From NCBI GenBank assembly GCA_029862005.1, contig JAOTYD010000006.1, positions 69,758-133,757 on the forward strand: a stretch of DNA of 64,000 nucleotides, written 5' to 3'. Position 1 is the first letter of the stretch; the number at the start of each line of letters is the position of its first letter. The DNA is from Gammaproteobacteria bacterium (GTDB taxonomy: Bacteria > Pseudomonadota > Gammaproteobacteria > GCA-001735895). The notes below the pieces were generated by a model. The model saw nothing but the letters and a program-made list of their open reading frames with translations. It did not search any database and had not been told where the DNA came from. Positions 20,440 through 47,916 of this stretch are shown here, piece after piece. A program made the translations under genes and the position numbers.

Positions 20440-20441
20440 CG

Positions 20442-21757: not shown

Positions 21758-21767
21758 TAAGATCCCT

Positions 21768-24806: not shown

Positions 24807-26102
24807 ATGTGGAAAAATCTTGGCGCTTCCTGGGCGATATTAATTGGCATCGGATGCATGATGCTAGCCAATGGCCTGCAGGGTACCCTGCTGGGTGTGC
24901 GCGCCGGCATCGAGGGATTTTCGACGTTCACAACCGGGATATTGATGTCGGGATATTTCATCGGCATGTTTATCGGTTCGCTGGTGTCACCAATGCTGGT
25001 CAATCGAGTTGGCCATATTCGTGTGTTTTCGGCACTCGCGTCGATGGCCTCCATTTCAATCCTGTTTCACGGCGTTTATATCGAGCCGTGGATCTGGATG
25101 CTGATGCGCATCATTACCGGAATCAGTTTTGCCGGGTTCTACGTGGTAACCGAGAGCTGGCTCAACGACCGGGCCAGTAATGAAACCCGTGGCAAGGTGT
25201 TATCGGTATACATGCTCATTGTTACCGGCGGCATGGGCGCTGGTCAGTTTTTACTCAACCTTGCAAAACCCGAAGCGATTGATTTGTTCATACTGATTTC
25301 CGTGATCATATCATTTGGGCTGATTCCAATACTGCTAACGGCCAAGCCCGCGCCAAACTTCGCCACGTCGTCCAAGATGTCGGTAGTCGACCTGTATCGC
25401 GCCTCACCGCTGGCCGTTATCGGCAACTGCCTGACGGGAATGGCTCATGGTACGATTTTCGGGCTGGGAGCAATTTATGCGAGCGCGGTACTGGTCGACC
25501 TTAAGGCAATCTCGTGGTTCATGGCCTGCTTCCTGATTGGCAGCCTGATATTCCAGTGGCCCGTCGGATTTATCTCCGACCTCGTCGGCAGACGTGGCAT
25601 CATGGCCGGTCTGTCGAGCATTGCTATCGCCTGCTGTTTACTCGCGCTCGCTACACCGAGTGACAGCTGGCTGTTTTACGCATCGATCATCGCCCTCGGC
25701 GGCGCCGCAATGCCGATGTACTCGGTTTGTATTGCTTACGCCAACGATCGACTGGAACCACATCAAATCGTTGCCGCCAGTGGCAGCCTGGTCATGGTCG
25801 CAGGTTTTGGTGCAATGATCGGGCCTATTGTAATCGCCTTTTTCATGGACCTGTACGACCTGTCATTTTATTTCTGGGGTATCGCGACGGTATTCGCGAT
25901 TATCTTCTTTTTCACCTTGATCCGCATCGGCTCCCGTGCCGGAGTCGCAATAGCTGATCAATCGCACCTGATCGCTGGCCCTATTGGTACCCCGATTGCC
26001 GAGTTTATCGCACCCGATTCGTTCGAATACGCGGACGCCGTCGCAAAGCACAATGTGCGGGAGCTCGATCAACGCGAAGACATTACCGAGCGTCGGCTAT
26101 AG
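24807..26102 (+). CDS. MFS transporter
   Basis: 431 aa, 12-TM, major facilitator pattern. Confidence 0.88.
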   Translation: MWKNLGASWAILIGIGCMMLANGLQGTLLGVRAGIEGFSTFTTGILMSGYFIGMFIGSLVSPMLVNRVGHIRVFSALASMASISILFHGVYIEPWIWMLMRIITGISFAGFYVVTESWLNDRASNETRGKVLSVYMLIVTGGMGAGQFLLNLAKPEAIDLFILISVIISFGLIPILLTAKPAPNFATSSKMSVVDLYRASPLAVIGNCLTGMAHGTIFGLGAIYASAVLVDLKAISWFMACFLIGSLIFQWPVGFISDLVGRRGIMAGLSSIAIACCLLALATPSDSWLFYASIIALGGAAMPMYSVCIAYANDRLEPHQIVAASGSLVMVAGFGAMIGPIVIAFFMDLYDLSFYFWGIATVFAIIFFFTLIRIGSRAGVAIADQSHLIAGPIGTPIAEFIAPDSFEYADAVAKHNVRELDQREDITERRL

Positions 26103-26106
26103 CGAT

Positions 26107-27711
26107 TTAAAGCGTCCACCGCAGATCGAGCGTGAAGATGTCCTCGTCACCGATATCGTCACCGATTTCCTTTAACGGATGTCCCCAAAGCAGGCGACCA
26201 TTGAAGTTTGCATCCGATACTTCAATCCCTACACCAACACTGTAAATTTCTCCACAAACATCTGGATTGTCGACTTCACATTTGGCATCGCCATAGTCGA
26301 CGCCGGCCGACAGAGAAATTGTTTTGGTGAAAGGGTTTCCACTGAAGGGATTCACCACCGACCGTAATTGTCGGGTCAGGTTACTGTGCAGATACCAGGC
26401 ATTGCTTCCACTCAGTGACGACGAATAGCCACGCACGGTGTAGGGGCTGCCCAGGTACAGCTTATCGTTATCGAACAGTATATCGTCACTGTATTGCAGG
26501 TATAGCTTGATGCTCGCGTACCAGGCAGGATCAGGCAGGTAATAAAACAGCTGGCTGTCGATATTGAATTTTTCAAATTGAAGTCTTGCTTCATTTTCAA
26601 ACCCATCCGCGAGCGTGTAGTAGTCATCGTCTCTGGCCCCGAAGGAATCAAGCCCCCGGTGATAACTGAAACCGGTGCTGAGCTGACCCCATGGTTGTAT
26701 CCAGTCGTGCCGCAGATCGAGTCGCAGCTGGCTGGTTTTATAGCTGGAAACATCAATTAGCTGGTCATCAAAAAAACTGCGCGTGTCCTTAAGCTCCAAT
26801 GCCAACGCCAGGGTCAGCCTGGCCGTCTGGCTACGGGTTAGCAGCTTGCTGACCTGTAGCTGATTGCTGACAGTATCACCCTCGGAAAGAAAACTGTCGT
26901 TGATTCCCTGTACCCGTTGTTCATATTCGATATCGCTATGATTCAATAGCAGCAGGTAATCCCCCAGGGGAAAAGAGTAACTTAACTCGCGACTTCGATT
27001 ACTTTGATAGGTCTGAAATATTTCACCGCCGTTATAGCGAAACTCTATTATGTCATTGATATTGAAAGGATTATCGAGGGTTGCCAGTAAACTCAACTGG
27101 GGATCGATATCCGTTCGCACATTGATTCCAAGCTCGGTGCGAACCGTATCCGACTCCGTGGTCCTGATCGCTACGATGCTGCCACCCTGTTGTGTCCCCG
27201 GCCTGATCTCGAAACTGGCGCTGACCGAGGCCACGCGCTCGATGGCCTCAAGCGAAGTCTCAAGTTCGCGCAGGTTTAGAATCTCGCGGTTGAACATGAA
27301 AGCCGTCGCGATCTTGCCATTGCTGGTACCGCTATTGGCATCGATGATCGCCTCGACTCTGCCCACCAGGATACGAATCTCGATCTGACCATCGCTGATA
27401 TCCTGTTCCAGTAAATAAGGACGTGAGGTGACATAGCCTCGCCCGATAAAGTCATTCGAGATTGCTGACAGAATGCCTCGAATCAGGCTGCCATCGATAC
27501 AGTTGCCGAGGAATGGTCGGATCAATGATGCCTGGCCGGCATCGCTGAGAATTTCGCTGGCCTCAATATCCACCCTTGCCAGGGGGACACATTCAGCTTC
27601 GCTTGCCGCGTGTACCACGCCCTGCAGCAACAGGCTGAGTAGAACTACCCTAAAACCAGATTGACGTAAAAAGGCGCGTGACGGTAGCGTCAAAACTGTA
27701 AAGCGGTTCAT
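26107..27711 (-). CDS. Omp85-superfamily TpsB/ShlB/FhaC-like outer-membrane transporter (POTRA plus beta-barrel), orphan
   Basis: Signal peptide, POTRA-like N-region, C-terminal barrel carrying the conserved L6-loop VRGY motif (GSPYTVRGYSSS). ATG 27711 preferred; TTG 27717 also possible. Confidence 0.72.
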   Translation of the reverse strand: MNRFTVLTLPSRAFLRQSGFRVVLLSLLLQGVVHAASEAECVPLARVDIEASEILSDAGQASLIRPFLGNCIDGSLIRGILSAISNDFIGRGYVTSRPYLLEQDISDGQIEIRILVGRVEAIIDANSGTSNGKIATAFMFNREILNLRELETSLEAIERVASVSASFEIRPGTQQGGSIVAIRTTESDTVRTELGINVRTDIDPQLSLLATLDNPFNINDIIEFRYNGGEIFQTYQSNRSRELSYSFPLGDYLLLLNHSDIEYEQRVQGINDSFLSEGDTVSNQLQVSKLLTRSQTARLTLALALELKDTRSFFDDQLIDVSSYKTSQLRLDLRHDWIQPWGQLSTGFSYHRGLDSFGARDDDYYTLADGFENEARLQFEKFNIDSQLFYYLPDPAWYASIKLYLQYSDDILFDNDKLYLGSPYTVRGYSSSLSGSNAWYLHSNLTRQLRSVVNPFSGNPFTKTISLSAGVDYGDAKCEVDNPDVCGEIYSVGVGIEVSDANFNGRLLWGHPLKEIGDDIGDEDIFTLDLRWTL

Positions 27712-28828
27712 TTCCAACCGTCCCCGCCTTGGTCAGGTCGCGGAAATCGTCATAGTCGAAGCTTATGAAATCGAGCTGCAGGTTCAGACTGCCACGTTCA
27801 ACCGCACTCCAGGACCGGCCAAATTCGTAACTTGCACCCAGGCCAACAGTAGTGCTAGAAAAGGTGCTCAATTCCTTGTCACGTGCGAGGAAATTCAGTG
27901 CACCCCTGCTCGGGAACAAGTCGCTGTAGAATTCGGCGCTGCTTTGATCGTGATATCGAAAACTGGCCTCGACAATCCAGGCGTCACCGTAGGGGAAGGT
28001 ATACCCCAGCTCGTAGGTGGTCGCGTCGATATCCCAGGTATCTTCGAATATTCGAACCCCAGCATGTAACGCGGCACGTTGTGGCAGAAAATAATTGGCG
28101 CGCACGGCAATAGCGTTGCTAGTGCGGGTATCCGGATAGATTTCCGGCTCAAAGCTATAGCTAGTGCATGCTGGTGGATCACTACAAAATCGTACCGAAC
28201 GATAGGGATTATTGAGATAACCATCATCGGTTATCGTTTCCAGGGTTAAAGCCATGACCAGATCCTTGGTCAGGATTTGCGAAATCCCAAACCGATAGCT
28301 GCGCACCTTGGTGTCTTCTTCAAAAGCATCATCCCCATTTCGTCCAACTGTATTATCACCCAGCGCAAAGCTCATGGTGACGGTGGTCAGGTCACCAAAC
28401 ATGTCCTGCGAAATCCCGAGACTTAATGTATTAGCCTCGAAGTCACTTTCATCGCTAACCGTATAGCCGAGACTCATGGTTGTCTTTTGACGCAGGTAAT
28501 CGATGCTGACAGAATTTTCTGTGCGTTCCTCGGTGTACTCGCTTGCACTAACGAGCACATCAACCGAGGCACTGGTGACATTATCGACATAGTGATTCAA
28601 GCCTACTGATAGGCTATCACCCACATTCTTGCGCACCAGAAACGATGGTCCATCGATTTCGGCGCCACCACCATCGTATCGATGGTAGAGCAGGTCCACG
28701 CGCTCTTCCGGCAATACAGCGGCTCGCAATTCCTGGATGGACGATACCAACAGGGAGATAACCACCAACAGCCAACTGGATGATTTCACGAAAGCATGAC
28801 ATTGCTTGGTGGCGGTCATATTTACCAT
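27650..28828 (-). CDS. DUF3570-like outer-membrane beta-barrel protein
   Basis: About 390 aa, signal peptide, alternating beta-strand pattern ending in an aromatic residue (...SIWF). Family assignment is from memory of the DUF3570 size and context. ATG 28828 is preferred over GTG 28885. Confidence 0.55.
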   Translation of the reverse strand: MVNMTATKQCHAFVKSSSWLLVVISLLVSSIQELRAAVLPEERVDLLYHRYDGGGAEIDGPSFLVRKNVGDSLSVGLNHYVDNVTSASVDVLVSASEYTEERTENSVSIDYLRQKTTMSLGYTVSDESDFEANTLSLGISQDMFGDLTTVTMSFALGDNTVGRNGDDAFEEDTKVRSYRFGISQILTKDLVMALTLETITDDGYLNNPYRSVRFCSDPPACTSYSFEPEIYPDTRTSNAIAVRANYFLPQRAALHAGVRIFEDTWDIDATTYELGYTFPYGDAWIVEASFRYHDQSSAEFYSDLFPSRGALNFLARDKELSTFSSTTVGLGASYEFGRSWSAVERGSLNLQLDFISFDYDDFRDLTKAGTVGNEPLYSFDATVTRLFTSIWF

Positions 28829-28865
28829 GCAAGAGTTTTTTGCGGTAACCAGCAGGGCAGGCAAG

Positions 28866-29090
28866 CTAATTGCAGCCGCATCCACCGCCTGTTGCTATGC
28901 CCGCGCCCCTTGCGCCCTCACGAGAATCATAAACATGATGTATATAGCTTGCCGATACCGGATCTCGGTTGAAGCTCATGATGGGGTCTGCGAGATTGGC
29001 GCGTTCGTAGGGCTTGACCCAGGGCTCGATCGCACAACCCCCCAGAATAAAGACACTACTAATTAATGCAAATGCGATTTTCTTTTGCAT
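28866..29090 (-). CDS. DUF4266-like small lipoprotein (C-terminal GGGCGCN)
   Basis: 74 aa with lipobox LGGC and an unusual Cys/Gly C-terminal tail. Confidence 0.55.
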   Translation of the reverse strand: MQKKIAFALISSVFILGGCAIEPWVKPYERANLADPIMSFNRDPVSASYIHHVYDSREGARGAGIATGGGCGCN

Positions 29091-29094
29091 CTTT

Positions 29095-29607
29095 TTACTC
29101 GCGCACCAGTTTTTTCACCATCTTGCGATACTTCTCTTCATCGCCCGGCTTGTAACCCTTATGCAGATAGCGCACGTTGCCATCACGGTCGAGGACAACC
29201 GTGGTCGGCATCGCGATCACATTGTATTTCTTACTGACCAGGTTGTTGTTATCCAGCAATACCGGAAAATCAACCGGGAAGTTCTTGAGGAATCCCCGCG
29301 CTTTCTTGACGTCCTCTTCGACATTAACGCCGAGCACGGTAAATCCGAGCGGTTCATACTTATTATGCAGGTTGTTCAGCAAAGGCATTTCTTCTCGGCA
29401 GGGGCCGCACCAGGACGCCCAGAAATTAATCAGGACCACGTTACCCGTCAATTCGCTGAGTTTGAGGTTTTTACCGGTAAGCGACTTTAACGTGAAATTC
29501 GGCGCCGGACCCTTTAACGAGGCCGCGTGCGAGAGATTTAATCCTGCAAACGATAAAAAACACAGCAGTAACAAGCTGATTCCGGTTCGCGATAACATGC
29601 TGTTCAT
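29095..29607 (-). CDS. TlpA-like periplasmic thioredoxin (redoxin family)
   Basis: Signal peptide plus WASWCGPC. Strong RBS AGGAGA. Confidence 0.88.
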   Translation of the reverse strand: MNSMLSRTGISLLLLCFLSFAGLNLSHAASLKGPAPNFTLKSLTGKNLKLSELTGNVVLINFWASWCGPCREEMPLLNNLHNKYEPLGFTVLGVNVEEDVKKARGFLKNFPVDFPVLLDNNNLVSKKYNVIAMPTTVVLDRDGNVRYLHKGYKPGDEEKYRKMVKKLVRE

Positions 29608-29619
29608 ATCTAATCTCCT

Positions 29620-30273
29620 TTAGAAAAATAAGTTAAATGCCACTGTTAGTTCAATATTGTGGGTCGTTTCCTCGCTGCCGAAGAGGTCCTGCTCGAAGAT
29701 CAAGTCTCGCATTTCAATGTCGAGGCTGAAGCCGTCGGCAAACAAGGTGCGATGCCCTACTGCATAAGCGATGGTAAATCGATCATCGCCCGCAAATTCC
29801 GTGTTACCCACACCCGCAGACAGATAAAGCACAGTATTGAATGTAGTTGAATCGGTTAAAAATGCCTCCCCGGGGAACAGGTTGAATCCAAGGGAAACGA
29901 TGTAGTACTCGACTTCCCGCTCCTCATTGGACAACAGGGGGGCACCGCCACTCAGAATCTCGAAGCTGGTCTTTCCGGAGTCGCCGAGGCCGTAGGAAGC
30001 CTGCACGAAAAAATCTTCAGAAACGTTATAACCAAGCTTGATACCTTTCACGAGATCGGTATCAAAATCCTCGAGCGCCAGGTAACCTACGTAAACAGCG
30101 ATTTCAAAATCGTCTGAATCGATCTGGGATTCATCGAACTCGATACGCTCGATCTGAGGCTCGATCAGACTAGATTGATCCTCTTCATCACTCTGCGCAG
30201 CAACCTGGGTCACCGGCATCATTGCGATCAACCAAGCACTCGCTAGAAAAATACTGCGAAACCGAATTTCCAC
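29620..30273 (-). CDS. outer-membrane beta-barrel (OmpA-like / porin-family barrel domain) protein
   Basis: GTG start with signal peptide (MEIRFRSIFLASAWLIAMMPVTQVAA); amphipathic beta strands ending in ...AFNLFF. Confidence 0.6.
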   Translation of the reverse strand: MEIRFRSIFLASAWLIAMMPVTQVAAQSDEEDQSSLIEPQIERIEFDESQIDSDDFEIAVYVGYLALEDFDTDLVKGIKLGYNVSEDFFVQASYGLGDSGKTSFEILSGGAPLLSNEEREVEYYIVSLGFNLFPGEAFLTDSTTFNTVLYLSAGVGNTEFAGDDRFTIAYAVGHRTLFADGFSLDIEMRDLIFEQDLFGSEETTHNIELTVAFNLFF

Positions 30274-31118
30274 TCGTTTACTACCTCGCTGTTGTCACTG
30301 GTGCCGGATGAAAAAATTACATACTCGTTAGCCTCGAATCGAAACAGAAAACTGCGGCTGACATAGCGTTGCAATCCCAGACCAAATTGCGCAAAGCTAT
30401 TTTTATCGTCTCTTGCTGAAATCAGGATAACACTGGGATCAACCTCAATCTCACCCAATCCAAGAGTGAGATAAGGCGAGTACTTAAAATCCGGAAACGG
30501 CTGCATTACCAGATTTCCCTTGTAGAATGTACTACTCGATTTATCGCCTACTGACTTCCCAAAATGAAACTCACCCGTCAGGTTCTCGGAAAACGAATAT
30601 CCGGTAAACAGAGTAAACACCGGAGCCGATTCAAATTCACCGCCGGTATATCCCAGGATCCACTTGCGCTGGGTAAAATCTTCCAGATCGGACTCGACAA
30701 CCCTGAACTTTTCGCCGGTGAGTAGAAGTGTTTCCCGCATCTGATCACGACTCGCCCACCCGGTCTTGCCTGTGCTGGTTTCGATTCTGAACCAGTCGGT
30801 TTTGCGTCTGATAACACTGACCTCGGTGCCTCGATCAACCACGTAAAAAATCGGGTAGCCTGCGCCTGGGCCGGTATGCAGCTCGATAAAAGGATCAGCG
30901 ATTTTAACCTTGTAATAAACCTTTCCTTCCGCATCAATATTTTTCTCAGGCGCGACTTCACTCTCAGCTGTCCTTTTCGATGCTCCCTCTTCCATTACGG
31001 TAGGTGCTTTTTGTGCCACCAGGATATCTGCGTCGATCGATTGCGACTGTGACGGTCTGGAAGCGACAAATAGCAAAAGAAACAGGCTGGGCAAAAGTAT
31101 CCCCTTGAGACGTTTCAA
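30243..31118 (-). CDS. secreted SH3b-domain protein fused to an outer-membrane beta-barrel domain
   Basis: TTG start with signal peptide. Bacterial SH3-like segment (YYKVKIADPFIELHTGPGAGYPIFYVVDRGTEVSV...WFRIE...GWASRDQM) followed by a barrel ending ...GFAVFF. Confidence 0.6.
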   Translation of the reverse strand: MKRLKGILLPSLFLLLFVASRPSQSQSIDADILVAQKAPTVMEEGASKRTAESEVAPEKNIDAEGKVYYKVKIADPFIELHTGPGAGYPIFYVVDRGTEVSVIRRKTDWFRIETSTGKTGWASRDQMRETLLLTGEKFRVVESDLEDFTQRKWILGYTGGEFESAPVFTLFTGYSFSENLTGEFHFGKSVGDKSSSTFYKGNLVMQPFPDFKYSPYLTLGLGEIEVDPSVILISARDDKNSFAQFGLGLQRYVSRSFLFRFEANEYVIFSSGTSDNSEVVNEWKFGFAVFF

Positions 31119-31149
31119 GTTTATTTTCCCGTGTTATTACAGCCACTAG

Positions 31150-33975
31150 CTAGTTTTGTGGCGCCGCCGGGTCAAAAGGATCATTAAAGTTCTGGGCGCC
31201 TAAATCTATCCACTCTGAGATTAGCTTTAATTCGGCACCTGTCAACATAGTCGTATGATCGACACTGCCCACCGGCAATGCGCGCCCGGCGTCCAGCTCG
31301 GTTCCGGTCATCTTTTCAATGAAAAAGCTGCTGCGGGCACCAGCCGAAGTCATGATCGGAGCGATCGCAGCTGCCGGGTCGGGAATTGTACCGCCGATGC
31401 CGTCGGGCACAGTAAACTGCTCGAGCATACCCCCCGCATTGATGAACTGGCCCTGCCTGGTGTTAAACATTTGTTGATAAGACCTGAAACGATCGTTCGG
31501 GTCCTGGTTGGGATCGGTGGTCAAATCGAGCTGCCCATAGGGTAGGCGTGTACCGTTGTTAGTGGTGTGACAGCTAATACAGGTATCGTCACCGACGCCA
31601 TCGGCCACCGCCACTGACACCAGTGGCGTATTGGTCGGGTCGTTGTTTGGTGGATTGACCGGATCCATCGGCGTAATGGCGTCAACAGCGCCGCGATTAA
31701 GCTGGAAAATCGCGTGAATATGGGGTGGATAATGGATTGCCACACGGCAATTGTAGAGCCAGTTGGGAGCGCAAAAGGTATTAGTCGGCCTCAACATGCC
31801 GGGGCTCAGATCGGCATAAAGATAATCGATATCCGGGTCTGGAGTGCTTATGCCGGGATCGGTCCAGTAATCTCGGTATATCAGGTCAGCGCTGAGCTTC
31901 GGTTGATTGGCGACCGCAAGGCTATCGAAACGTACCTCCGCCATGGTTTGCCCGGGAGTACCCATGTAAGGACTAGCTGGCATCGAGCCTGGAATCAAAG
32001 TATTGACGAATATCCCACCAGCCGGCAGACCGCTATTGATCGATGGCGCCTCGCCATCGCTGCGCGCATGAATTTCGGGCGGACTACCGCCATTGTTGAC
32101 GTCATGACAACCGACGCAGGTTAGCATATCTCCCGGTTGCACCTGGAACCAGTTCTCATGCGACGGGCCAATCCTGCGACCTTCACCATCGAGCACCTCG
32201 ACCGCTAACGGGACATAGGCCGGAACTTTGACCTTGACCGAACCGTCGGGTTCGACCGGCGCGTAGCCGACGATCTCGCGCATACCCCGATTACGTTGCG
32301 GTCCAAACGCATTGCCATCAAGGTCCGGTGGGTTGACCAGCGTCGGGTCATCGGGATCGGGTATTCCGACCGACTTTACGAAACGCACGAAACGGGCGGG
32401 ACGATCGACTGCGGCGGAATTCACCGGATCGGCAAAATCCTGTACCGAGGTAATGCCGAGGCCAGCGGGCGCGCATTCGGTAAAGAAACAACCGTTAAAC
32501 GCGGGATCGCTCAAATCGTAAACGCTTTTGATATTGACCACGCCAACGACTTCGGTCTCCCAGCCAGGATCAAGCTCACCGAGCAGGCTCTTGTCGAAGA
32601 TAACCGGCGCCCGGGTTCTGTTCTCGAGCGCAATGACGTCGGTGATAACCCTGCCCGCTTCCGCCAACACGATGGGTTTCTGGGTATCGACGTCCATATC
32701 GTAAATCCAGATCGAGTAAGAGGGCGACCTTTCCACGGCCGCTGGATCATTCACATATTCATCAAGACAGGGCCTTATTACACCATTGACGTCCACCTGG
32801 CAGGTGGATTTACTGACCAGCATGCGATTCGATCCATCCCATAACGGGTAAACCGTGGCATAGCGGCCGTTGGCTGAGATCGAACCATCGTTGGTGACAT
32901 TGGAGACGGTGGCATCACGCTGCGCCGGACCGGGCATGCCCGCCAGTGACCAGAGCGGCTTATTGATATCCACAAAGCGATCGACGCTGATAACCTCAAC
33001 ATTGCCGCCGTCGAAGGTTCCGTCAAACGGCTTGGTGATTACCATCAAGTCACCGTTTTCCATTTCGCGAAAATTGGTAAAGTGGATTTCTGCGCCGCCG
33101 GTGCCGGTATTGTGACTTTGCGATCCATATAGAATCTGCAAATCGCTGCCGTCCGGATTGACGGTGTATAAATTGATTTCGTCATTGCCGCCGGCATTGT
33201 CCCAACGACTGAATACTATTTTTCCACCCTTGAAACTGGTAAATACCTGCGGGTAAAGATCGTGGCTCTGGTTGAAGGAAATCTGCTTGATTTCGGTGCC
33301 GTCGGCATTCATGACGTGCAGCACCAAAGCCTGAACACCCTCGTCTTCGTCGAGTGCGGAAAATCTCGGCTTGCCTTCGTTGATCAGCATTTCGCGAGAC
33401 TGGCGCTGACGATTCGAGGAAAATACGATACGGCCATCGGGCAGGTAGCTGGGGAAAAGATCATCACCCTCCTCGGCAATCAGAGCGGTGGAGATAACTC
33501 GACGAAGTTGACTCGTGGTTAAATCGTATTCGTAAACATTCCAGCTGGGGAACGGGGGATTGTTCGGGTCGGGGTCGAACAGGCGCAGTGAAAAAACCAG
33601 CTTGGTGCCATCGTGGCTGGCGCTCAAGCCCTTGACGTCGCCGATACCGGTGGTAACGGAGCTCGTGATATTAATCTCGTTGTCGTTACTCCGCAGATAA
33701 ACATCGCCGCCGGAACTGAACAGCCTCGGCTCGCGCACATCGACCTGAACCTCGTCGCCCATGTCGTCTACCGGAATCGGACGCTTGACGTAAGCAATCG
33801 GGATTTCGATGATGCCGGGATCGATTCCTTCGCCTGAGTCGGATCCGGGATCACATGCGCTCAGGGCGACGACTGCGGTGCATATTACAGCTAATCCTAA
33901 CCAGTGAAACTGGAATTCCATCAACTGCCTGGATCTCGTCAGAATGCGTGTATATAAGGCTGTCGTATGTTTCAT
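31150..33975 (-). CDS. lipoprotein with TolB-like PD40 beta-propeller and a C-terminal di-heme c-type cytochrome-like region
   Basis: Lipobox VALSAC. PD40-like repeats (DGTKLVFS, DGRIVFSSNR, KIVFSRWDNAGG). Two CxxCH modules: CVGCHDVNNGG at 32104-32118 and CISCHTTNNGT at 31567-31581. RBS AAGGA. Confidence 0.7.
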   Translation of the reverse strand: MKHTTALYTRILTRSRQLMEFQFHWLGLAVICTAVVALSACDPGSDSGEGIDPGIIEIPIAYVKRPIPVDDMGDEVQVDVREPRLFSSGGDVYLRSNDNEINITSSVTTGIGDVKGLSASHDGTKLVFSLRLFDPDPNNPPFPSWNVYEYDLTTSQLRRVISTALIAEEGDDLFPSYLPDGRIVFSSNRQRQSREMLINEGKPRFSALDEDEGVQALVLHVMNADGTEIKQISFNQSHDLYPQVFTSFKGGKIVFSRWDNAGGNDEINLYTVNPDGSDLQILYGSQSHNTGTGGAEIHFTNFREMENGDLMVITKPFDGTFDGGNVEVISVDRFVDINKPLWSLAGMPGPAQRDATVSNVTNDGSISANGRYATVYPLWDGSNRMLVSKSTCQVDVNGVIRPCLDEYVNDPAAVERSPSYSIWIYDMDVDTQKPIVLAEAGRVITDVIALENRTRAPVIFDKSLLGELDPGWETEVVGVVNIKSVYDLSDPAFNGCFFTECAPAGLGITSVQDFADPVNSAAVDRPARFVRFVKSVGIPDPDDPTLVNPPDLDGNAFGPQRNRGMREIVGYAPVEPDGSVKVKVPAYVPLAVEVLDGEGRRIGPSHENWFQVQPGDMLTCVGCHDVNNGGSPPEIHARSDGEAPSINSGLPAGGIFVNTLIPGSMPASPYMGTPGQTMAEVRFDSLAVANQPKLSADLIYRDYWTDPGISTPDPDIDYLYADLSPGMLRPTNTFCAPNWLYNCRVAIHYPPHIHAIFQLNRGAVDAITPMDPVNPPNNDPTNTPLVSVAVADGVGDDTCISCHTTNNGTRLPYGQLDLTTDPNQDPNDRFRSYQQMFNTRQGQFINAGGMLEQFTVPDGIGGTIPDPAAAIAPIMTSAGARSSFFIEKMTGTELDAGRALPVGSVDHTTMLTGAELKLISEWIDLGAQNFNDPFDPAAPQN

Positions 33976-34321
33976 CTATTTCCTTAAAGTTGGTACCCGG
34001 TGGAGCGCCCTATGTCATTAATTTTATAGTTTATCTTCGAACTTATATAACCCGCTGCCGAATTCTGACCAGATGTACTTATTTCCTTACGAACGGTATA
34101 CGTGAGAGCGAGCCAGTCTCGTAAAATAGGGTATTAGGTTTAATACGCAAACAGTATTTACGAGTTAACAGCTCTGAGCTTAACAGCATAAATAAAATGG
34201 TCAGGTGTAATTGAGGTTTTTGTGACTTAATTAACGCAGTTTATCCATTTGACGTTAACTCGTTGTGCTAGGTTTAAACCTTCGGCTTTGAGCCCGCGCA
34301 ACAGCGGTTGATAAGGAAATA

Positions 34322-35635
34322 ATGGGGATACTGATGGGAAAGAACAACAAAATATCGCTGCCGTTGTTAATCATGGTGGCACTGACAAGCCAGCCGCTCT
34401 GGGCCGATGCCCAGGATAGAGCGCAGGCCAAAAGAATTCATGATCGGCTCGTTGGCGTTACCGCTACTAACGCGACGATAGACGCCATGGAAGCACTGCT
34501 GATCAGTGATCCTACCGGTAAAACCGCCGCTGAATACGCGATCGACACCGCGCAAAATCCCAATGCACGATTCTTCTACAACGTAACCCTGAAGAATTTC
34601 GCCGCGCCCTGGACCAACGAAGAGCAGACGGTATTCACCCCGCTAAACGATTATTCGGCGACCGTGATCGGCCTGATACGCGATGGCGGCGATTTCAGGC
34701 AAATATTGCACGGCGACATCATCTATCGCGGTGATCCGGGCCTCGGCATCGCGGCTTACTCGAATAGCAACAACAACCACTATGAACAACTGGAAGCGCT
34801 TGGTCCCACTACTGGTGACCTCGCCAACCCGAATATCCTCGAGGGTAGCGTAACCCAGCCGGGCATAACCCAGAGCTCGGTGACAGGCCTGGCCAGTGGT
34901 GCCACCGCCGGTGTGATGACCACGCGCGCGGGCGCAATGGCGTTTTTCTCCGCAGGCACCAACCGCGCCATGTTCCGCTTCACGCTAATGAATCACCTGT
35001 GCACCGATCTCGAACCGCTCAAGGATGTCTCGCGCTCCCCCGACAAGGTTCGCCGCGATGTATCGCGCAGCCCAGGCGGCGATAGCCGTCTCTACATGAA
35101 TGGCTGTGTCGGCTGCCACGCCGGCATGGACGGCATGGCGGGCGCGTTCGCCTTCTACGAGTGGGATAGTGCCGCCGGCCGTATGCTGTACCAGGACATC
35201 GGCAGCCCGCTTTTCGACCCCGCCACCGGCGTATCGCTCAAGCACAACATTAACGGGAATAACTTCGAGTACGGTCACATCACCGAGGATGACAGCTGGA
35301 TCAACTACTGGCGCAACGGTCCCAACTCGAAGCTCGGACTCCGGCCCGCCGATGACGGCCCGAATGCTACCGGTTGGGGACCGCTCATCAATCCCGATGC
35401 CAATGGCAATGAAACCGGTAACGGGGCGAAATCTCTTGGCATCGAAATGTCCAATAGTAAAGCCTTCGCCCAGTGCCAGGTAGACAAGGCATTCAAGTCG
35501 ATCTGCCTGCGTGATCCCAATAATTTCGCCGCGGACCGCAGCGCACGCGACGGATTTGTTTCCAACTTGGTCGGCAGCGGATACGACATGCGCGAAGTCT
35601 TCACCGACGTCGCCGCATACTGCAAAGGGAGTTGA
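34322..35635 (+). CDS. secreted mono-heme c-type cytochrome-like protein
   Basis: Signal peptide; one CxxCH (CVGCH at 35105-35119); SGAT motif at 34895-34906. RBS AAGGA. Confidence 0.62.
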   Translation: MGILMGKNNKISLPLLIMVALTSQPLWADAQDRAQAKRIHDRLVGVTATNATIDAMEALLISDPTGKTAAEYAIDTAQNPNARFFYNVTLKNFAAPWTNEEQTVFTPLNDYSATVIGLIRDGGDFRQILHGDIIYRGDPGLGIAAYSNSNNNHYEQLEALGPTTGDLANPNILEGSVTQPGITQSSVTGLASGATAGVMTTRAGAMAFFSAGTNRAMFRFTLMNHLCTDLEPLKDVSRSPDKVRRDVSRSPGGDSRLYMNGCVGCHAGMDGMAGAFAFYEWDSAAGRMLYQDIGSPLFDPATGVSLKHNINGNNFEYGHITEDDSWINYWRNGPNSKLGLRPADDGPNATGWGPLINPDANGNETGNGAKSLGIEMSNSKAFAQCQVDKAFKSICLRDPNNFAADRSARDGFVSNLVGSGYDMREVFTDVAAYCKGS

Positions 35636-35637
35636 AT

Positions 35638-38304
35638 ATGAATAAAAATCACCCTTTTATTAAGATCATTTCACTCCTTGCACTGGGCGCGATGATGGCG
35701 GCCTGTGACAGTGGCGGCGTTGGCACCACGGCTAACCAGAACCTGGGTAACACGGCTAACAATTTCGCCTACACCGGTCCGGCCGCGCGCGACATCGCCG
35801 TCAGTAATTTCCAGTACTACCTATGGCGGAACGTGACCGACGTAACCCGCTGCGGCGGCTGTCATAACTCAGAAGCCAGCGCGCCGGTTACCCCGTTATT
35901 CTTCGATACCTCCAATGTTAACGTAGCTTACGACGCGACTGTGGCCAGGGATCCGTCACTTTTACCCGCGAATCTACCGACGATGAATCCGTTGAACGCG
36001 GTATTTGTCGACAAGCTCAACAATAATCACTTTTGCTGGGAGACCAATCCCGCGATCTGCGCCACGCTGATAGCTGGTTGGATCGACGACTGGAAAAATG
36101 CGGCCAATGGCGGCGCTGGGGCGCGCCAGATCAATCTGACTGCACCGGCCAGCATCAGGGACCCGGGCGACTCCAAGTCGTTTCCCGCCACCGCGACCAC
36201 TGTCGGCACCAACGGCACCAGTTTCGCCGATACCGTGTACGAGCTGCTGGTTGGCAGCAACCCGGTAATTGCCGACAATAACTGCCAGAACTGCCACAAT
36301 GAAGTTGGCCCAATATTGCCGCAGGCGCCGTTTTTTGCCCACACCGATGTCGATGTAGCTTACGAGGCCGCCAAGTCAAAAATGGACATCGATACACCCG
36401 CTAATTCGCGATTGGCCGTGCGCCTGTTCGAGCAGCACAACTGCTGGAGCACCTGTGGCCCCGACGAAACGCTGATGGTGCAGAGGATCACGGATTTTGC
36501 CGATGGCATTGCGGTTTCGTCGATCGACCCCACCCTGGTCACCAGTAAGGCACTGACCCTGGGCGAAGGTATTATCGCCTCCGGTGGCAATCGCCATGAA
36601 ACCGATCAATTCGCCATCTGGGAATTCAAAACCGGCACTGGTCTGACCGCTTACGACACCAGCGGTGTCGGCGCCTCGATCAACCTGTCACTGATCGGCA
36701 GCGTCAACTGGGTTGGCGGCTATGGTCTCGAATTCACTGGTGGACGGGCACAGGCCGATACTATCAGCAGCGATAAAATCTTTACCTATCTTCAGGATAC
36801 CGGTGAATATGCCATCGAAGCCTGGGTCATCCCGGCCAACGTCACCCAGGAAGACGCCAATATCGTCAGTTACTCCGGTGGTGACCTCGCGCGCAATTTC
36901 ACGCTGGGCCAGGATATGTACAACTACGAGTCTTACAACCGGATTGACTCGGTTATTCCTGCACCGAACGGCGAACCCGTTATGTCTACCGGGGAAGACG
37001 ACGAGGAGCTGGCGCAAGCCAGCTTGCAGCATGTCGTGATCAACTATGATCCCCTCGATCGCCTTGGCAATGGCGCTGGCCGCAGCATTTACGTCAACGG
37101 CCAGCTGGTCAATAACCTGACTGACACCGCGGCGGGATTACCGATCACAAACGTCTGGGACGATACTTTCGCATTCATCCTCGGCAACGAAATCTCAGGA
37201 AACCGCCCGTGGATGGGACAGGTCAAAATGGTTGCGCTACACAACAGGGCACTAGCCCAACCAGAGATTCAGCAGAACTTCGACCTCGGCGTCGGCCAGA
37301 AATTCCTGCTGCTATTCTATGTCGGTCATCACCTCGGTGAAATCGGCAACCCCAACAGCTTTATCATGTTCGAGGTGGCCCAGTTCGACAGCTACAGTTA
37401 CCTGTTCAACAAGCCCACGTTCGTCACCCTTGATGGCAGTGCCCCGAGTTCAGACATTGATATTAAAGGCCTGCGTATCGGCATCAACGGCAAAGAGGCG
37501 CTCGCAGGCCAGGCTTATGCCAACCTCGACACCAGCGTCATCGCCGCCACCTACGACCCGGCGACCGGCCAGGAACTGTCTTCTAAGGGTACTATTATTT
37601 CGCTCGAAAAAGGCTCCGACAGCGACGAGTTCTTCCTGACTTTCGAGGATTTCAACGGCTTCACCAAGGCCTTTAGTGATATCGTTCCGACAGTAGCTGC
37701 CGATCCGGGCGATCCGGTCAACCCGCTTGAGGCCGACATCGGCGTGCGCACCTTCCAGGAGATCAATGTGACCATCGCCGAGATTACCGGCGTGCCTGTC
37801 ACCAACACGGCAGTCGCAACGGTTTACAACGACTACATCCAGCAGTTGCCGACGATAGAGGCGATCGAAGCCTTCCTGCCCTCGCACCAGATGGCGATCG
37901 CGCAACTCGCGTTGACTTCCTGTAGCGAACTGGTCGAAGGCAACGGTTCGATACCCAGGGCGACCTACTTCCCTGGATTCAATTTCGGCACCAACGCGCA
38001 AACCGCTTTCGATACCCAGGCCGAGCGAGATGCGATTATCGATCCGCTGCTAAGCGCGGCGATGAACGTCGACCAGGCCACGCCTGCGAATAATCTCATC
38101 ACGCAACCAGTGGAACTGGAAGTCGCTGACTTGCTGAGTTCTCCGGCCGCGCAGGATCTTGATCCCGCACTCACCGGCGACTCGTATGACAGTCTGATAA
38201 CAGAAATGTTATCCGATCTCGTAAACACGCCAGCACGCACCGAGCAAATCGTGAAAGCCGTCTGCGCCGTCGCCACTGGTGGCGCGGTAATGCTAGTACA
38301 ATAG
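35638..38304 (+). CDS. lipoprotein with two cytochrome-c-like CxxCH modules and a LamG/concanavalin-like domain
   Basis: Lipobox LGAMMAAC. CGGCH at 35851-35865 and CQNCH at 36283-36297 lie in an internally duplicated module (...P..FF...V.VAY). Jellyroll/LamG-like middle region. RBS AGGGAG. Confidence 0.68.
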   Translation: MNKNHPFIKIISLLALGAMMAACDSGGVGTTANQNLGNTANNFAYTGPAARDIAVSNFQYYLWRNVTDVTRCGGCHNSEASAPVTPLFFDTSNVNVAYDATVARDPSLLPANLPTMNPLNAVFVDKLNNNHFCWETNPAICATLIAGWIDDWKNAANGGAGARQINLTAPASIRDPGDSKSFPATATTVGTNGTSFADTVYELLVGSNPVIADNNCQNCHNEVGPILPQAPFFAHTDVDVAYEAAKSKMDIDTPANSRLAVRLFEQHNCWSTCGPDETLMVQRITDFADGIAVSSIDPTLVTSKALTLGEGIIASGGNRHETDQFAIWEFKTGTGLTAYDTSGVGASINLSLIGSVNWVGGYGLEFTGGRAQADTISSDKIFTYLQDTGEYAIEAWVIPANVTQEDANIVSYSGGDLARNFTLGQDMYNYESYNRIDSVIPAPNGEPVMSTGEDDEELAQASLQHVVINYDPLDRLGNGAGRSIYVNGQLVNNLTDTAAGLPITNVWDDTFAFILGNEISGNRPWMGQVKMVALHNRALAQPEIQQNFDLGVGQKFLLLFYVGHHLGEIGNPNSFIMFEVAQFDSYSYLFNKPTFVTLDGSAPSSDIDIKGLRIGINGKEALAGQAYANLDTSVIAATYDPATGQELSSKGTIISLEKGSDSDEFFLTFEDFNGFTKAFSDIVPTVAADPGDPVNPLEADIGVRTFQEINVTIAEITGVPVTNTAVATVYNDYIQQLPTIEAIEAFLPSHQMAIAQLALTSCSELVEGNGSIPRATYFPGFNFGTNAQTAFDTQAERDAIIDPLLSAAMNVDQATPANNLITQPVELEVADLLSSPAAQDLDPALTGDSYDSLITEMLSDLVNTPARTEQIVKAVCAVATGGAVMLVQ

Positions 38305-38316
38305 GATTCGAATATC

Positions 38317-39945
38317 ATGGCCAGATTTAAAAAGAACCAGTACATCCCCCCCCAGGCACCGTTGTTGTACGAAGACCACGGACGTCCTGTCACCCGACGG
38401 CAGTTTATTCGCCAGGGCATGATGACCGGCTCGGCTACCGTGCTTTCGGCCGGCGCCTTCGGTATGTTTGCGAATCCGAACATGGCGCGTGCAGCGGTCG
38501 CACCCGATCTTGACGCCCTCGCGACCGATATCGGCTGTATCCTGGGCGGTGTCGGCGCCGGTCAAAGCGTACCCTTTATCGCCTTTGACCTGGCCGGGGG
38601 TGCTAATTTTGCTGGCTCCAACGTGCTGGTCGGCCAGGGCGGCGGACAGATGGATCTGCTGTCCACGGCCGGTTACAGCAAACTCGGTCTGCCGGGCGAT
38701 ATGCTGCCCGGACAGGACAGCACCGGCGTAACCCTGTTAAATACCAGCGCCAACAACGATTTCACCAATAATGATCTCAATCTCGTATTTCATGCGGATA
38801 GCCCGATGCTGTTCGGCATTCTCGAGAAAGCCAGCACGGCAATCGGCAATGTCGATGGCGCCGTGATCCCGGCACGCTCGGACAACGACACCGGCAACAA
38901 TCCGCATAACCCGCTCTACCCGCTGGCGATGGCCGGTGCGCGCGGCAGTGTGGTCGACCTGATTGGTTCGCGCAGTAGCGTCTCGGGCGGCAACTCGATG
39001 GCGCCGGCGATGTATATCGATCCCAATTTCCAACCCACCAAGGTAGATCGTCCCAGCGATGTCACCGGGCTTGTGGATGTCGGCGATCTGACCACAATCC
39101 TGGGTCCGGACGATGTCACCGCGGTGATGGAATCCATTACCCGGATAACCCACAAAAAACTCAAGCTGGGTACCATCGACACCGGGCTGACCAACGACGA
39201 CGTGGTCAAGGACCTGGTACGCTGTGGCTACCTCAAGGCCTCCGACATCGCCGACCGCTTTGCCGGCGTCGAAGTCGATCCGACACTCGATACCAACATT
39301 GCTGGTCCGATCTTTTCGGCAACCGAACTGGCCAACGATGGTGAGTTCAGAAAAACCGCCTCGGTCATGAAAATGGTCATGAATGGCTATGCCGCAGGCG
39401 GCTGCATCACCATGGGTGGCTATGATTACCACACCGGTGACCGGCGCGTCGGTGAAAATCGCGATTTGCGGGCCGGGCGCTGCATCGGCGCCTGCCTCGA
39501 ATATGCGCGCCTGCTGGCGTCTCCGCTAATGATTTACGTGTTTAGCGACGGTTCGGTGGCCAGTAACGGTAACACCGACGATACCGCGTCTGCCGGTGCT
39601 GGTGAGAACCTGGTACTCGGTGGCGGCGGCAAGGGCGAATGGACTGGCGATAATTCCTCGACCGCCTGTTCCTTTTTCCTGGTGTTCGACCCGACAGCCG
39701 CACCTACGCTGGTCGGCACACGCCAGATCGGACGTATGAACGCAGGCGCTTCCGTGGTCACCTCGGCCACGCCCGCGGCAAATAACGTCAACCTGCTGGT
39801 TAATATGGTCATACTTAACTATATGGCCGTGAACGGGCAGGTGTCGCCCGGAAATACAACCGCCTTCACCAATATTTTTCCGAATCACGGCCTGGGTAAT
39901 CAGGCAAACCTGGACAGCTTTATTTCGTTTGGTTCTTTGGTGTAA
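38317..39945 (+). CDS. Tat-signal secreted protein of unknown function (possibly DUF1501 / sulfatase-superfamily-like)
   Basis: Twin-arginine motif TRRQFIRQG plus an h-region. 542 aa. Tightly coupled to the preceding heme lipoprotein. Confidence 0.6.
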   Translation: MARFKKNQYIPPQAPLLYEDHGRPVTRRQFIRQGMMTGSATVLSAGAFGMFANPNMARAAVAPDLDALATDIGCILGGVGAGQSVPFIAFDLAGGANFAGSNVLVGQGGGQMDLLSTAGYSKLGLPGDMLPGQDSTGVTLLNTSANNDFTNNDLNLVFHADSPMLFGILEKASTAIGNVDGAVIPARSDNDTGNNPHNPLYPLAMAGARGSVVDLIGSRSSVSGGNSMAPAMYIDPNFQPTKVDRPSDVTGLVDVGDLTTILGPDDVTAVMESITRITHKKLKLGTIDTGLTNDDVVKDLVRCGYLKASDIADRFAGVEVDPTLDTNIAGPIFSATELANDGEFRKTASVMKMVMNGYAAGGCITMGGYDYHTGDRRVGENRDLRAGRCIGACLEYARLLASPLMIYVFSDGSVASNGNTDDTASAGAGENLVLGGGGKGEWTGDNSSTACSFFLVFDPTAAPTLVGTRQIGRMNAGASVVTSATPAANNVNLLVNMVILNYMAVNGQVSPGNTTAFTNIFPNHGLGNQANLDSFISFGSLV

Positions 39946-39969
39946 GCTAACCTTTTTGGTGCACTTTAC

Positions 39970-40989
39970 ATGTCTGAATCTCTGGCAGGCAAAGCCAATG
40001 GTTTGCCTCGGCAGACATTAGCCTCGTCTATCTTTACGATAATTCTCCTGTGTAGCCAAACGACGGCGCACGCCGAATGGCATCAACAGCAGCGCGACAT
40101 CATGGGAACCCGGGTTTCAGTTGAACTCTGGCATGATGAAGCCACAACCGCATCCAGATGCAGTGAAAAGGTTTTCACCGAAATGCGTCGCATCGAAGCA
40201 AGGATGAGCTCATATAAAAGCGACAGTGAGCTTTCATTTATCAATGACAACGCCGCGATGAACGCGGTCAAAATCAGTGATGAAATGATGCATCTGATTA
40301 AAAGATCGATTCACTTCTCCGAGGTTTCGAAAGGCGCGTTCGATATCACTTATGCCAGCGTCGGCTATGCCTACGACTACCGTAAACGCCAGCAGCCCAG
40401 CAATGAATCTATCTCGGAGAAACTGCCAGCTATCGACTATCATCATATTATGATTTCCGGAGATGAGATTCAGTTTGGCAACGATGCGGTACGTATCAAC
40501 CTCGGCGGCATCGCCAAGGGTTACGCGGTCGATCGTGCTGCCGATATTATCGGCCAGTGTGGCATCACCGAGGCCATGGTAAGTGCGGGCGGTGACAGCC
40601 GTATCATCGGAGATCGCAAGGGTCGCCCCTGGGTCATGGGTATCAAGCATCCTCGCGACCCTGAGGGCATTGCGATACGTCTGCCGCTCAGCGAAAGCGC
40701 GATTTCAACGTCGGGTGATTACGAGCGGTTTTTTATTGACGACGGCAAACGCGTGCATCACATTATCAATCCCGCCACCGGCCGCTCCGCGACGGCCAGC
40801 TGGAGTGCAACCGTCGTCGGCCCCGATGCCCTGACAACTGACGCTTTATCTACTACTATTTTTATTCTGGGTGCAGTCGACGGAATTACCCTGATTGAAA
40901 CCCTGGAAGGAATCGACGCCATCATTATCGATAGCGATGGAAAAGTGCATTACTCCTCTGGCTTTGAAGTACCTGAAGTCAAACAATAA
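39970..40989 (+). CDS. apbE: FAD:protein FMN transferase (ApbE family)
   Basis: Lipoprotein-like signal; the ApbE fold signature is spread along the protein. Confidence 0.85.
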   Translation: MSESLAGKANGLPRQTLASSIFTIILLCSQTTAHAEWHQQQRDIMGTRVSVELWHDEATTASRCSEKVFTEMRRIEARMSSYKSDSELSFINDNAAMNAVKISDEMMHLIKRSIHFSEVSKGAFDITYASVGYAYDYRKRQQPSNESISEKLPAIDYHHIMISGDEIQFGNDAVRINLGGIAKGYAVDRAADIIGQCGITEAMVSAGGDSRIIGDRKGRPWVMGIKHPRDPEGIAIRLPLSESAISTSGDYERFFIDDGKRVHHIINPATGRSATASWSATVVGPDALTTDALSTTIFILGAVDGITLIETLEGIDAIIIDSDGKVHYSSGFEVPEVKQ

Positions 40990-41011
40990 TCGCCCAAAAT
41001 CTAGCAGACCT

Positions 41012-41620
41012 ATGAAATATTTCAGCCTTATCATCCTTTTACTTGTTTACCTCGCCGTTCCCGTTGTCGGGCAGGAAACTTCATCAGAGTTGATCGAAGG
41101 CGAGATCGAAGTGCCACAAGCGGAAGAATCGGACGAGGCCAATGCAGAATCGATCGATGAAGATGAGTCCCTGGAAGGCTCGCTCGACGCGGATATCGAA
41201 GCCCTGAAAAAAGAAGTACTATCGCTTAACCGGGACCTGTTTATCCTCGAAGAGGACTTACTGTTTCCTTCGAACACCCAGTTCAGCGTCTTCCTGTCGA
41301 TGAACGCCGGTGCACTGTTCAGTCTCGATTCGATCCAGCTGAAAATTGACGACAAGAACATCGCCAATCACCTGTACACCGAGCGCGAACTCGCGGCCCT
41401 CAAGCGCGGTGGCGTGCAGCGTCTCTACATCGGCAACCTGCCGACAGGTGAGCACGAAATTATCCTGATTTTTACCGGGGTTGGACCCAAGGGTCGGGAC
41501 TACCGCCTCGGTGAAACAATCGTCATAGAAAAGACAACCGATCCCCAGTTCGTGGAATTCATGATCGCTGATGATACCGGTAAGGAACAACCTCAATTCG
41601 ATGTGCGTGTCTGGGAATAA
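41012..41620 (+). CDS. secreted acidic coiled-coil protein
   Basis: Signal peptide, a D/E-rich stretch, a coiled coil (ALKKEVLSLNRDLFILEEDL), then a beta-rich C-domain. Confidence 0.5.
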   Translation: MKYFSLIILLLVYLAVPVVGQETSSELIEGEIEVPQAEESDEANAESIDEDESLEGSLDADIEALKKEVLSLNRDLFILEEDLLFPSNTQFSVFLSMNAGALFSLDSIQLKIDDKNIANHLYTERELAALKRGGVQRLYIGNLPTGEHEIILIFTGVGPKGRDYRLGETIVIEKTTDPQFVEFMIADDTGKEQPQFDVRVWE

Positions 41621-46934: not shown

Positions 46935-46938
46935 ACAA

Positions 46939-47907: not shown

Positions 47908-47916
47908 GTACTACAA

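Follow-up and report, generated by a model that had tools for sequence, protein, structure and literature searches.

The locus examined here raises the question of what a protein that joins a lipid anchor, a beta-propeller and two haem-binding motifs in a single chain might be, and in what kind of system it would work. It lies on a stretch of 64,000 nucleotides of gammaproteobacterial DNA (contig JAOTYD010000006.1 of assembly GCA_029862005.1, positions 69,758 to 133,757 of the forward strand), to which we refer as the window and by which all coordinates are given. In the list of open reading frames (ORFs), a single ORF fills positions 31150-33975 exactly, on the minus strand, and encodes a protein of 941 amino acids (aa). 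Its closest relative of known structure is HzsA, the alpha subunit of the hydrazine synthase of anaerobic ammonium-oxidizing (anammox) bacteria. We propose, with a probability of roughly 0.6, that the protein is a Sec-exported, lipid-anchored, periplasm-facing dihaem c-type cytochrome, and that it serves as haem subunit in a conserved redox system of the cell envelope.

Homology to the alpha subunit of hydrazine synthase

A search of all sequences in the Protein Data Bank (PDB) finds a single relative of the protein, 5c2v_A, which is the alpha subunit of the hydrazine synthase of Kuenenia. The match grows stronger with the depth of the query, with an E-value of 1.9e-5 for the single sequence, 2e-11 with a profile of 33 sequences and 2e-14 with one of 106 sequences. 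The matching segments are collinear in the two proteins, and comprise the propeller blades, the middle domain with the first haem site, and the second CxxCH motif together with a C-terminal helix that carries the motif EW(I/L)DLGAQ. In these searches the C-terminal 320 residues match HzsA only. The Pfam domain HZS_alpha (PF18582) is found with an E-value of 4.1e-15 (56.5 bits, against a gathering cutoff of 26.6), and its region corresponds to HzsA chain residues 502-575. Four homologues of the protein, one of them a Woeseia orthologue, likewise exceed the HZS_alpha cutoff. Pfam PD40 is also matched (1.1e-5).

The predicted fold points in the same direction. A first AlphaFold run with 33 sequences gave a mean predicted local distance difference test score (pLDDT) of 53.7 and an unusable C-terminus, and an AlphaFold2 (AF2) model built from 106 sequences (41-86% identity) reached a pLDDT of 83.6 and a predicted template modelling score (pTM) of 0.85. 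When the latter was compared with the PDB using Foldseek, the top matches were 5c2v_A (E 4.1e-27) and 5c2v_D (E 7.3e-26), with a TM-score of 0.61 on the target and about 990 aligned columns (991 for 5c2v_A), at an identity to HzsA of about 15%. TolB comes next (6e-11), over about 435 columns and in the propeller only, and S9 peptidase propellers are also among the matches. TolB has no haems, no HZS_alpha domain and no lipid anchor, unlike the present protein, which scores 22.1 bits against a cutoff of 343 with the TolB equivalog model TIGR02800, in the propeller blades only. The C-terminal domain is assigned as a class-I-like cytochrome c domain, carrying haem 2, from the third collinear HzsA segment and the helical content of the AF2 model. 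By its profile matches the protein belongs to the HZS_alpha-domain superfamily and, in alignment and predicted model alike, it shows the three-part order of HzsA, i.e. propeller, HZS_alpha middle domain and C-terminal cytochrome c domain.

The N-terminus, MKHTTALYTRILTRSRQLMEFQFHWLGLAVICTAVVALSAC, runs to a lipobox, L-S-A-C, of which Cys41 is the last residue. This cysteine is invariant in both homologue alignments. Residue conservation was counted in a set of 72 orthologues from genomes (37-90% identity), to which all fractions of 72 refer; the lipobox pattern is present in 64 of them, and the +2 residue varies. The protein is called a lipoprotein by sequence pattern only. An AGGA ribosome-binding site stands 7-8 nucleotides 5' of the ATG and is kept in related loci.

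An earlier note on this DNA, written from inspection of the letters, had described a lipoprotein with a TolB/PD40-type propeller and an architecture recalling the hydrazine synthase alpha subunit, and had stopped short of placing it in any characterised family. The description agrees with what is reported here (the lipobox with its invariant Cys41, the PD40 match with the TolB fold match over the propeller, and HzsA as only PDB relative and first structural match), and the reservation about its family can be lifted, since the protein falls in the HZS_alpha-domain superfamily. The searches that the note had recommended, Pfam and Foldseek on an AlphaFold model, returned both HZS_alpha and PD40, and HzsA in first place over its whole length.

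Conservation and origin of the two haem sites

The protein contains two CxxCH motifs, where 0.0024 would be expected by chance given its own Cys and His composition. Invariant in all 72 orthologues are the Cys, Cys and His residues of both motifs (C620, C623 and H624 at haem site 1; C799, C802 and H803 at haem site 2), together with C41, C392, C735, H220, H606, H636 and H907, while at least 95% of the orthologues keep C403, C743, H238 and H288. In the propeller, many polar residues that are not part of the PD40 repeat signature vary little or not at all. The linker between the haem motifs is specific to the family and carries the conserved Cys735 and Cys743. In three orthologues (from loci L030, L064 and L076) haem site 2 reads CX4CH (C-SRGG-CH, C-TQAG-CH); these variants keep the Cys...Cys-His arrangement, which argues for a real haem site 2. 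The Cys, Cys and His of the two haem c attachment motifs seen in the earlier note are present throughout the orthologue set. Both motifs are supported as genuine c-type haem attachment sites, as predicted from their conservation.

The same note had attached importance to what follows each motif, reading the extended motifs CVGCHDVNNG (aa 620-629) and CISCHTTNNG (aa 799-808) as one identical signature and hence as the mark of an internally duplicated haem module. The signature is not a trait of the family. NNG follows both CxxCH motifs in one of 106 aligned homologues, namely the present protein itself, and the columns in question vary: at site 1, N627 is found in 24 of 72 orthologues and N628 in 11 of 72, and at site 2 the extension positions are mostly V and G. 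When aa 560-740 were compared with aa 741-941, hhalign gave a probability of 36% over 24 columns around the CxxCH motif; with blastp, 15 residues of the two haem regions aligned. We reject an internally duplicated module on the rarity of the signature together with the lack of detectable duplication in these comparisons; what the two regions share is the haem motif, and the rest is coincidence. HzsA fits this picture, as its two haems lie in different folds, haem alpha-I in a unique environment in the middle domain and haem alpha-II in a cytochrome c fold of class I (PMC12607021).

Comparison with HzsA and its homologues outside anammox bacteria

For comparison at the level of residues, we use the published HzsA numbering, which is the chain index of 5c2v_A plus 27 (indices 276, 560, 564 and 745 correspond to Cys303, His587, Tyr591 and His772; residue numbers from PMC12758564). 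HzsA of Kuenenia stuttgartiensis (5C2V/5C2W, chain A) has the same domain order as the present protein, its C-terminal cytochrome c domain included; the haem of that domain is bis-His ligated in HzsA, and is predicted to be so in our case. Haem site 1 aligns to the HzsA motif CSGCH and haem site 2 to CAMCH. The two proteins also have in common the motifs I-x-G-Y, D-G-S and L-D, a W before haem 1, the G inside CxGCH, a His 12 residues after haem 1, and EW(I/L)DLGAQ. The invariant H907 aligns with chain index 745, i.e. His772, in the segment GRLLHNKFLT.

Other parts of HzsA are missing. Tyr591 is the proximal ligand of haem alpha-I, and Cys303 is a zinc ligand together with His587 (PMC12758564). 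Tyr591 has no counterpart in the present protein, falling on a one-residue gap ('hdvn.ngg' against 'HYGSyRGR'), and the column of Cys303 is occupied by Gln286, in a weak alignment segment of 9.6 bits; Cys303 is not universal even in anammox bacteria (PMC12758564). Because both the tyrosine ligand and the zinc-site cysteine are lacking, haem 1 is predicted to be plainly ligated by His624. The present protein further differs from HzsA in its low identity (about 15%), in the spacing of the haem motifs (179 against 100, about 80 residues extra), in its lipoprotein anchor, in the lack of HzsB and HzsC partners, and in the distribution of its family, which is found in mostly aerobic or facultative Gammaproteobacteria, whereas HzsA belongs to anammox Planctomycetota.

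HzsA homologues outside anammox bacteria have been divided into clades I-IV, with members in, for example, Syntrophobacter fumaroxidans, Aquisphaera, Thermogutta and Opitutus (Hagglund et al. 2025, PMC12758564). Like the present protein, they have an HZS_alpha domain, a canonical haem 1 pocket, a gap at Tyr591 and no Cys303. Unlike it, they are defined by a gene nearby that encodes a homologue of beta and gamma in fused form, frequently accompanied by an FG-GAP/CRTAC1 gene. Clade I is without an equivalent of His772 and clades II and III are without haem alpha-II, whereas the present family keeps both. The gene context also differs, consisting here of ApbE, DUF3570, thioredoxin and DUF4266 genes and an operon with a PSCyt-like cytochrome.

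A conserved gene neighbourhood with a flavinylation module

Gene order around the HzsA-like gene is conserved across 80 genome loci, down to 37% identity, and also in metagenome contigs; the gene itself is syntenic in 76 of the 80. Table 1 collects the coordinates.

Table 1. Parts of the HzsA-like protein and neighbouring genes, with window coordinates and the basis of each assignment (loci: number among the 80 genome loci)
Feature	Coordinates	Strand	Evidence
HzsA-like dihaem c lipoprotein, 941 aa, whole ORF including stop	31150..33975	-	Pfam, PDB profile, Foldseek
Signal peptide with lipobox LSAC; Cys41, predicted lipidation site	33853..33975	-	Translation, conservation
Six-bladed PD40/TolB-type beta-propeller, ~aa 55-490	32506..33813	-	
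Pfam HZS_alpha middle-domain match, aa 563-625, ending in haem site 1	32101..32289	-	Pfam
Haem site 1, CVGCH (C620, C623, H624), predicted, ~HzsA haem alpha-I	32104..32118	-	Invariant in 72/72
Haem site 2, CISCH (C799, C802, H803), predicted, ~HzsA haem alpha-II	31567..31581	-	Cys/Cys/His invariant in 72/72
His907, predicted distal ligand of haem 2 (HzsA His772 by alignment)	31255..31257	-	Invariant in 72/72
C-terminal cytochrome-c-like domain, ~aa 745-941, with EW(I/L)DLGAQ motif common with HzsA	31153..31743	-	
SH3 domain + outer membrane (OM) beta-barrel protein, 3' of the HzsA-like gene	30243..31118	-	Pfam SH3_3, OMP_b-brl; 76/80 loci
OM beta-barrel protein (TIGR04565), 3' of the HzsA-like gene	29620..30273	-	71/80 loci
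TlpA/redoxin-type periplasmic thioredoxin, 3' of the HzsA-like gene	29095..29607	-	48/80 loci
DUF4266 small lipoprotein, 74 aa, ending in GCGCN	28866..29090	-	Pfam 3.8e-22
DUF3570, known ApbE flavinylation substrate	27650..28885	-	Pfam 2.3e-40; 70/80 loci
437-aa monohaem protein, CVGCH at aa 262, divergent gene 1	34322..35635	+	76/80 loci
890-aa dihaem lipoprotein with LamG domain, divergent gene 2	35632..38304	+	Pfam Laminin_G_3 2.7e-17; 68/80 loci
542-aa protein with twin-arginine translocation (Tat) signal, orphan family, divergent gene 3	38317..39945	+	56/80 loci (bounded by flank length)
ApbE FAD:protein FMN transferase	39970..40989	+	Pfam 3.2e-78; in flank of 36 loci, position varies
Three co-conserved genes: 241-aa secreted protein, 638-aa tetratricopeptide repeat (TPR) protein, 941-aa YbgF/BamD-like TPR lipoprotein	40895..46309	+	32-34 loci, arrangement varies

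The neighbouring genes include the components of a published module. DUF3570 has been found to be flavinylated by ApbE in experiment, at sites of the type [S/T]GA[S/T], and ApbE, DUF3570, thioredoxin and DUF4266 are recognised as an extracytosolic electron-transfer module (Meheust et al. 2021, PMC8238504). The cluster contains each of these four genes and preserves the flavinylation motif (D-x-x-[ST]-[GS]-A-[ST], in 59 of 59 DUF3570 orthologues). The module was described without an HzsA-like cytochrome, whereas here an HzsA-like gene and two OM barrels head the operon. The DUF3570 protein of the window carries two adjacent flavinylation-type motifs, DNVTSAS and DVLVSAS, the second of which occurs in 11 of 60 orthologues. 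As its listed GTG start overlaps the DUF4266 gene, and its orthologues measure 363-381 aa, translation probably begins further downstream, 3' of that GTG. Directly after DUF3570, at 26107-27717 on the minus strand, and in close relatives only (9 loci), there is a ShlB/FhaC-type two-partner-secretion transporter (POTRA + ShlB), near which no TpsA-like exoprotein was seen.

In the window, three ORFs of 100 aa or more contain a CxxCH motif; they lie next to one another, hold five motifs in total, and correspond to the HzsA-like gene and the first two genes of the divergent operon. The motif is found in 67 of 67 orthologues of the 437-aa protein, and both motifs of the 890-aa lipoprotein in 49 of 49. 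The family of the 437-aa protein weakly matches the Planctomycete domains PSD2 (DUF1585) in 24 of 31 members and PSCyt3 (DUF1588) in 17 of 31, and searches of this cytochrome against PDB by profile, Pfam and NCBIfam gave these weak matches at most. In the Tat-signal protein, an RRxF motif is present in 47 of 51 orthologues and mean column identity is 56%; no Pfam, NCBIfam or PDB match was found for it, profile searches included. Its invariant motifs GGYDYH and DLAGGAN may recall DUF1501-type proteins. Taken together, the three divergent proteins resemble uncharacterised pairs of PSCyt/PSD and DUF1501/DUF1552 genes.

The window also encodes a complete Ccm system I (16282-23083, minus strand, with matches to CcmA, CcmB, CcmC, CcmF and CcmH/I) and a full-length DsbD (57437-59887, plus strand). 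DsbD is the usual electron donor of TlpA-like thioredoxins.

Proposed function and alternative explanations

From its architecture, homology, motif conservation and synteny, we infer how a lipid-anchored dihaem cytochrome of this kind could work. The protein would be anchored by Cys41 and face the periplasm. Haem 2 (H803/H907) is predicted to be low-spin and bis-His ligated, like HzsA alpha-II, and would exchange electrons at the surface of the protein. As in HzsA, haem 1 (H624) would lie at the junction of middle domain and propeller, where it may be accessible to ligands and might accept a small ligand or substrate. Its partners in the redox system would be the two OM barrels, the TlpA-like thioredoxin, the CXC lipoprotein DUF4266, and DUF3570 flavinylated by ApbE, with the divergent trio of monohaem protein, dihaem LamG lipoprotein and Tat-exported protein as further partners. 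The likely logic is that electrons are relayed from thiols by way of flavin to haem, DsbD being encoded in the same window, or else between the five haems of the three cytochromes, with haem 1 as start or end.

Several considerations weigh against this proposal. Haem attachment, lipidation and activity of the protein are predicted properties, and the arrangement of the haem ligands, the placement of haem 1 with respect to the propeller and the distance between the haems are carried over from HzsA only. Synteny indicates co-inheritance, not physical or electron-transfer coupling. The proteins of the divergent operon (437-aa, 890-aa and Tat) have no characterised relatives, and the gene context therefore reveals no substrate. 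In HzsA itself, the two alpha haems are too far apart for efficient transfer (PMC12607021); in the present protein the linker between the haem motifs is about 80 residues longer, so that an internal path from haem to haem is conjectural.

The principal competing explanation, which we consider somewhat unlikely, is that the protein is a carrier or scaffold without a catalytic site, in which both haems are six-coordinate and the propeller docks partners such as the OM barrels and TPR proteins in the manner of TolB. A sixth ligand for haem 1 could be given by the nearby invariant residues H606, H636 and M565, and the YbgF-like TPR, ExbB, ExbD and TonB-like genes in the vicinity lend the neighbourhood a Tol-Pal-like flavour. 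However, HzsA shares H636 and has a five-coordinate haem alpha-I (PMC12607021), and the ExbB and TonB genes do not follow the cluster in L032, the only distant locus in which this could be checked. The low score with the TolB equivalog and the many invariant polar residues of the propeller, which go beyond what PD40 repeats would call for, also speak against a mere docking role. The idea that the CxxCH motifs are incidental altogether, in a non-redox periplasmic protein of the TolB/PD40 family or a peptidase-associated propeller, is highly improbable. It can appeal to the PD40 match, to weak matches to TolB and Dpp5 and to the S9 peptidase propellers found by Foldseek, but both motifs are invariant, far exceed chance expectation and align to the two haem sites of HzsA, the Pfam scan detects no peptidase catalytic domain, and the last third of the chain has HzsA as its only match.

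At the opposite end stands the explanation that the protein is a genuine hydrazine synthase alpha subunit and that anammox-type N-N bond formation takes place in Gammaproteobacteria, to which we give hardly any credence. It would account for the three-domain build and for the retention of both haem sites and the His772 equivalent. Against it, the NCBIfam equivalog for hydrazine_alpha (NF052339) scores 37 bits, where the cutoff is 800. No HzsB- or HzsC-like gene is found in the 64-kb window, where the other CxxCH ORFs encode the monohaem and LamG dihaem proteins, neither of which has an NCBIfam match at E 0.1 or better; beta and gamma partner genes are likewise absent from the 80 related loci, as judged by synteny, and the window holds no octahaem ORF resembling hydrazine dehydrogenase or hydroxylamine oxidoreductase (HDH/HAO). 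The gap at Tyr591, the Gln opposite Cys303 and the low identity to HzsA add to this, and the same losses are the published grounds for rejecting other non-anammox homologues (PMC12758564). A true hydrazine synthase is largely refuted by the equivalog score, the two residue losses and the missing HzsB and HzsC, and we classify the protein, on these comparisons, as a distant homologue of HzsA that is not a hydrazine synthase.

The envelope redox system proposed above could also be more elaborate than we have assumed. In an extended version that we regard as unlikely, although worth stating, the cluster of at least 14 genes would form a hitherto undescribed redox machine that spans the envelope of marine Gammaproteobacteria. 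In it, a haem enzyme of the HzsA type would be connected by way of three other haems and a thiol/flavin relay (made up of thioredoxin, DUF4266 and the flavinylated DUF3570 barrel), and haem 1 would carry out small-molecule chemistry on a substrate such as NO, hydroxylamine, peroxide or a metal. If true, this would be the first function of the hydrazine synthase alpha fold outside anammox bacteria, and would offer a tractable model of its ancestry. 

A 2025 study concluded that hydrazine synthase evolved from pre-existing periplasmic haem proteins, and the homologues that it found all lack parts of the alpha haem set (PMC12758564). Its origin is an open question, on which a family that keeps both alpha haem sites and the distal His may bear, and this family is a possible experimental system for the function of the HzsA fold outside anammox bacteria. 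The orphan ApbE/DUF3570 flavinylation module, for its part, gains a candidate haem partner. By itself the result is at the level of annotation, with no new chemistry demonstrated.

Distribution and novelty of the family

With an E-value limit of 1e-3, the HzsA-like protein has more than 3,100 matches among database proteins. When 1.84 billion representatives were searched with a profile, 585 clusters (50% identity) reached an E-value of 1e-30 or lower, and 150 members were recovered at full length, each scoring above 500 bits. The 80 loci of the genome scan are nearly all from Gammaproteobacteria, and are metagenome-assembled genomes (MAGs) save for a scaffold of the Olavius algarvensis Gamma3 symbiont. 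The closest are unclassified marine MAGs at 90% identity, and the Gamma3 symbiont at 77%; at about 40% identity the family is found in Woeseiaceae, Steroidobacteraceae, Kangiella, Thiohalobacter, Chromatiaceae and Azotimanducaceae. The same cluster also turns up in two loci labelled Acidimicrobiia and Bifidobacteriaceae, which are probably mis-binned.

That HzsA-like proteins exist outside anammox bacteria is already known, such homologues having been described in 2025 (PMC12758564), and Pfam annotates the domain. A supplementary BLAST table of that study includes gammaproteobacterial HzsA hits, which its main text leaves untreated. One of these is a 961-aa 'PD40 domain-containing protein' from the RefSeq genome of Wenzhouxiangella sp. 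XN24 (22% identity to HzsA, E 7e-16; PMC12758564), which, being similar in length, is a candidate member of the gammaproteobacterial family. In the literature searched we found no paper on a gammaproteobacterial HzsA-like family, and the supplementary files of the flavinylation study (PMC8238504) yielded no HZS_alpha entry. Within that literature, three points appear to be undescribed: an abundant gammaproteobacterial clade of HzsA-like proteins, the predicted retention of the full alpha-subunit haem set without beta-gamma partners, and the fixed link to the DUF3570 flavinylation module and to the operon of PSCyt-like cytochrome and Tat-signal protein.

Other features of the surrounding sequence

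The HzsA-like gene and the 437-aa gene are separated by a divergent intergenic region of 346 bp (33976-34321). Within it, several short blocks are kept across loci with only 50-77% protein identity, namely AATCTAGCACA, TTCACAAAA, GCTGTTAAGCT, GTTTACGAGA, CGTATACCGTT and TTGGTCAGAA (all are read with the HzsA-like gene on the plus strand). The blocks are possibly promoters or operators. By eye, no known operator was recognised in them, and a scan of positions 25800-41200 for sigma-70 promoters and terminators gave no more sites than shuffled sequence.

The YbgF/BamD-like multi-TPR lipoprotein at 43484-46309 on the plus strand is also 941 aa long, but is unrelated to the HzsA-like protein, the equal length being coincidental. 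It is followed on the same strand (46293-50918) by genes for a 213-aa TPR protein, a 94-aa secreted protein that is conserved in L032, ExbB, two candidate ExbD proteins (163-aa ORFs), a TonB_C-like protein and a 172-aa ORF. The same stretch encodes a second thioredoxin-like protein, identified by its WCxxC motif and by 27-36% tblastn similarity to the redoxin of the cluster.

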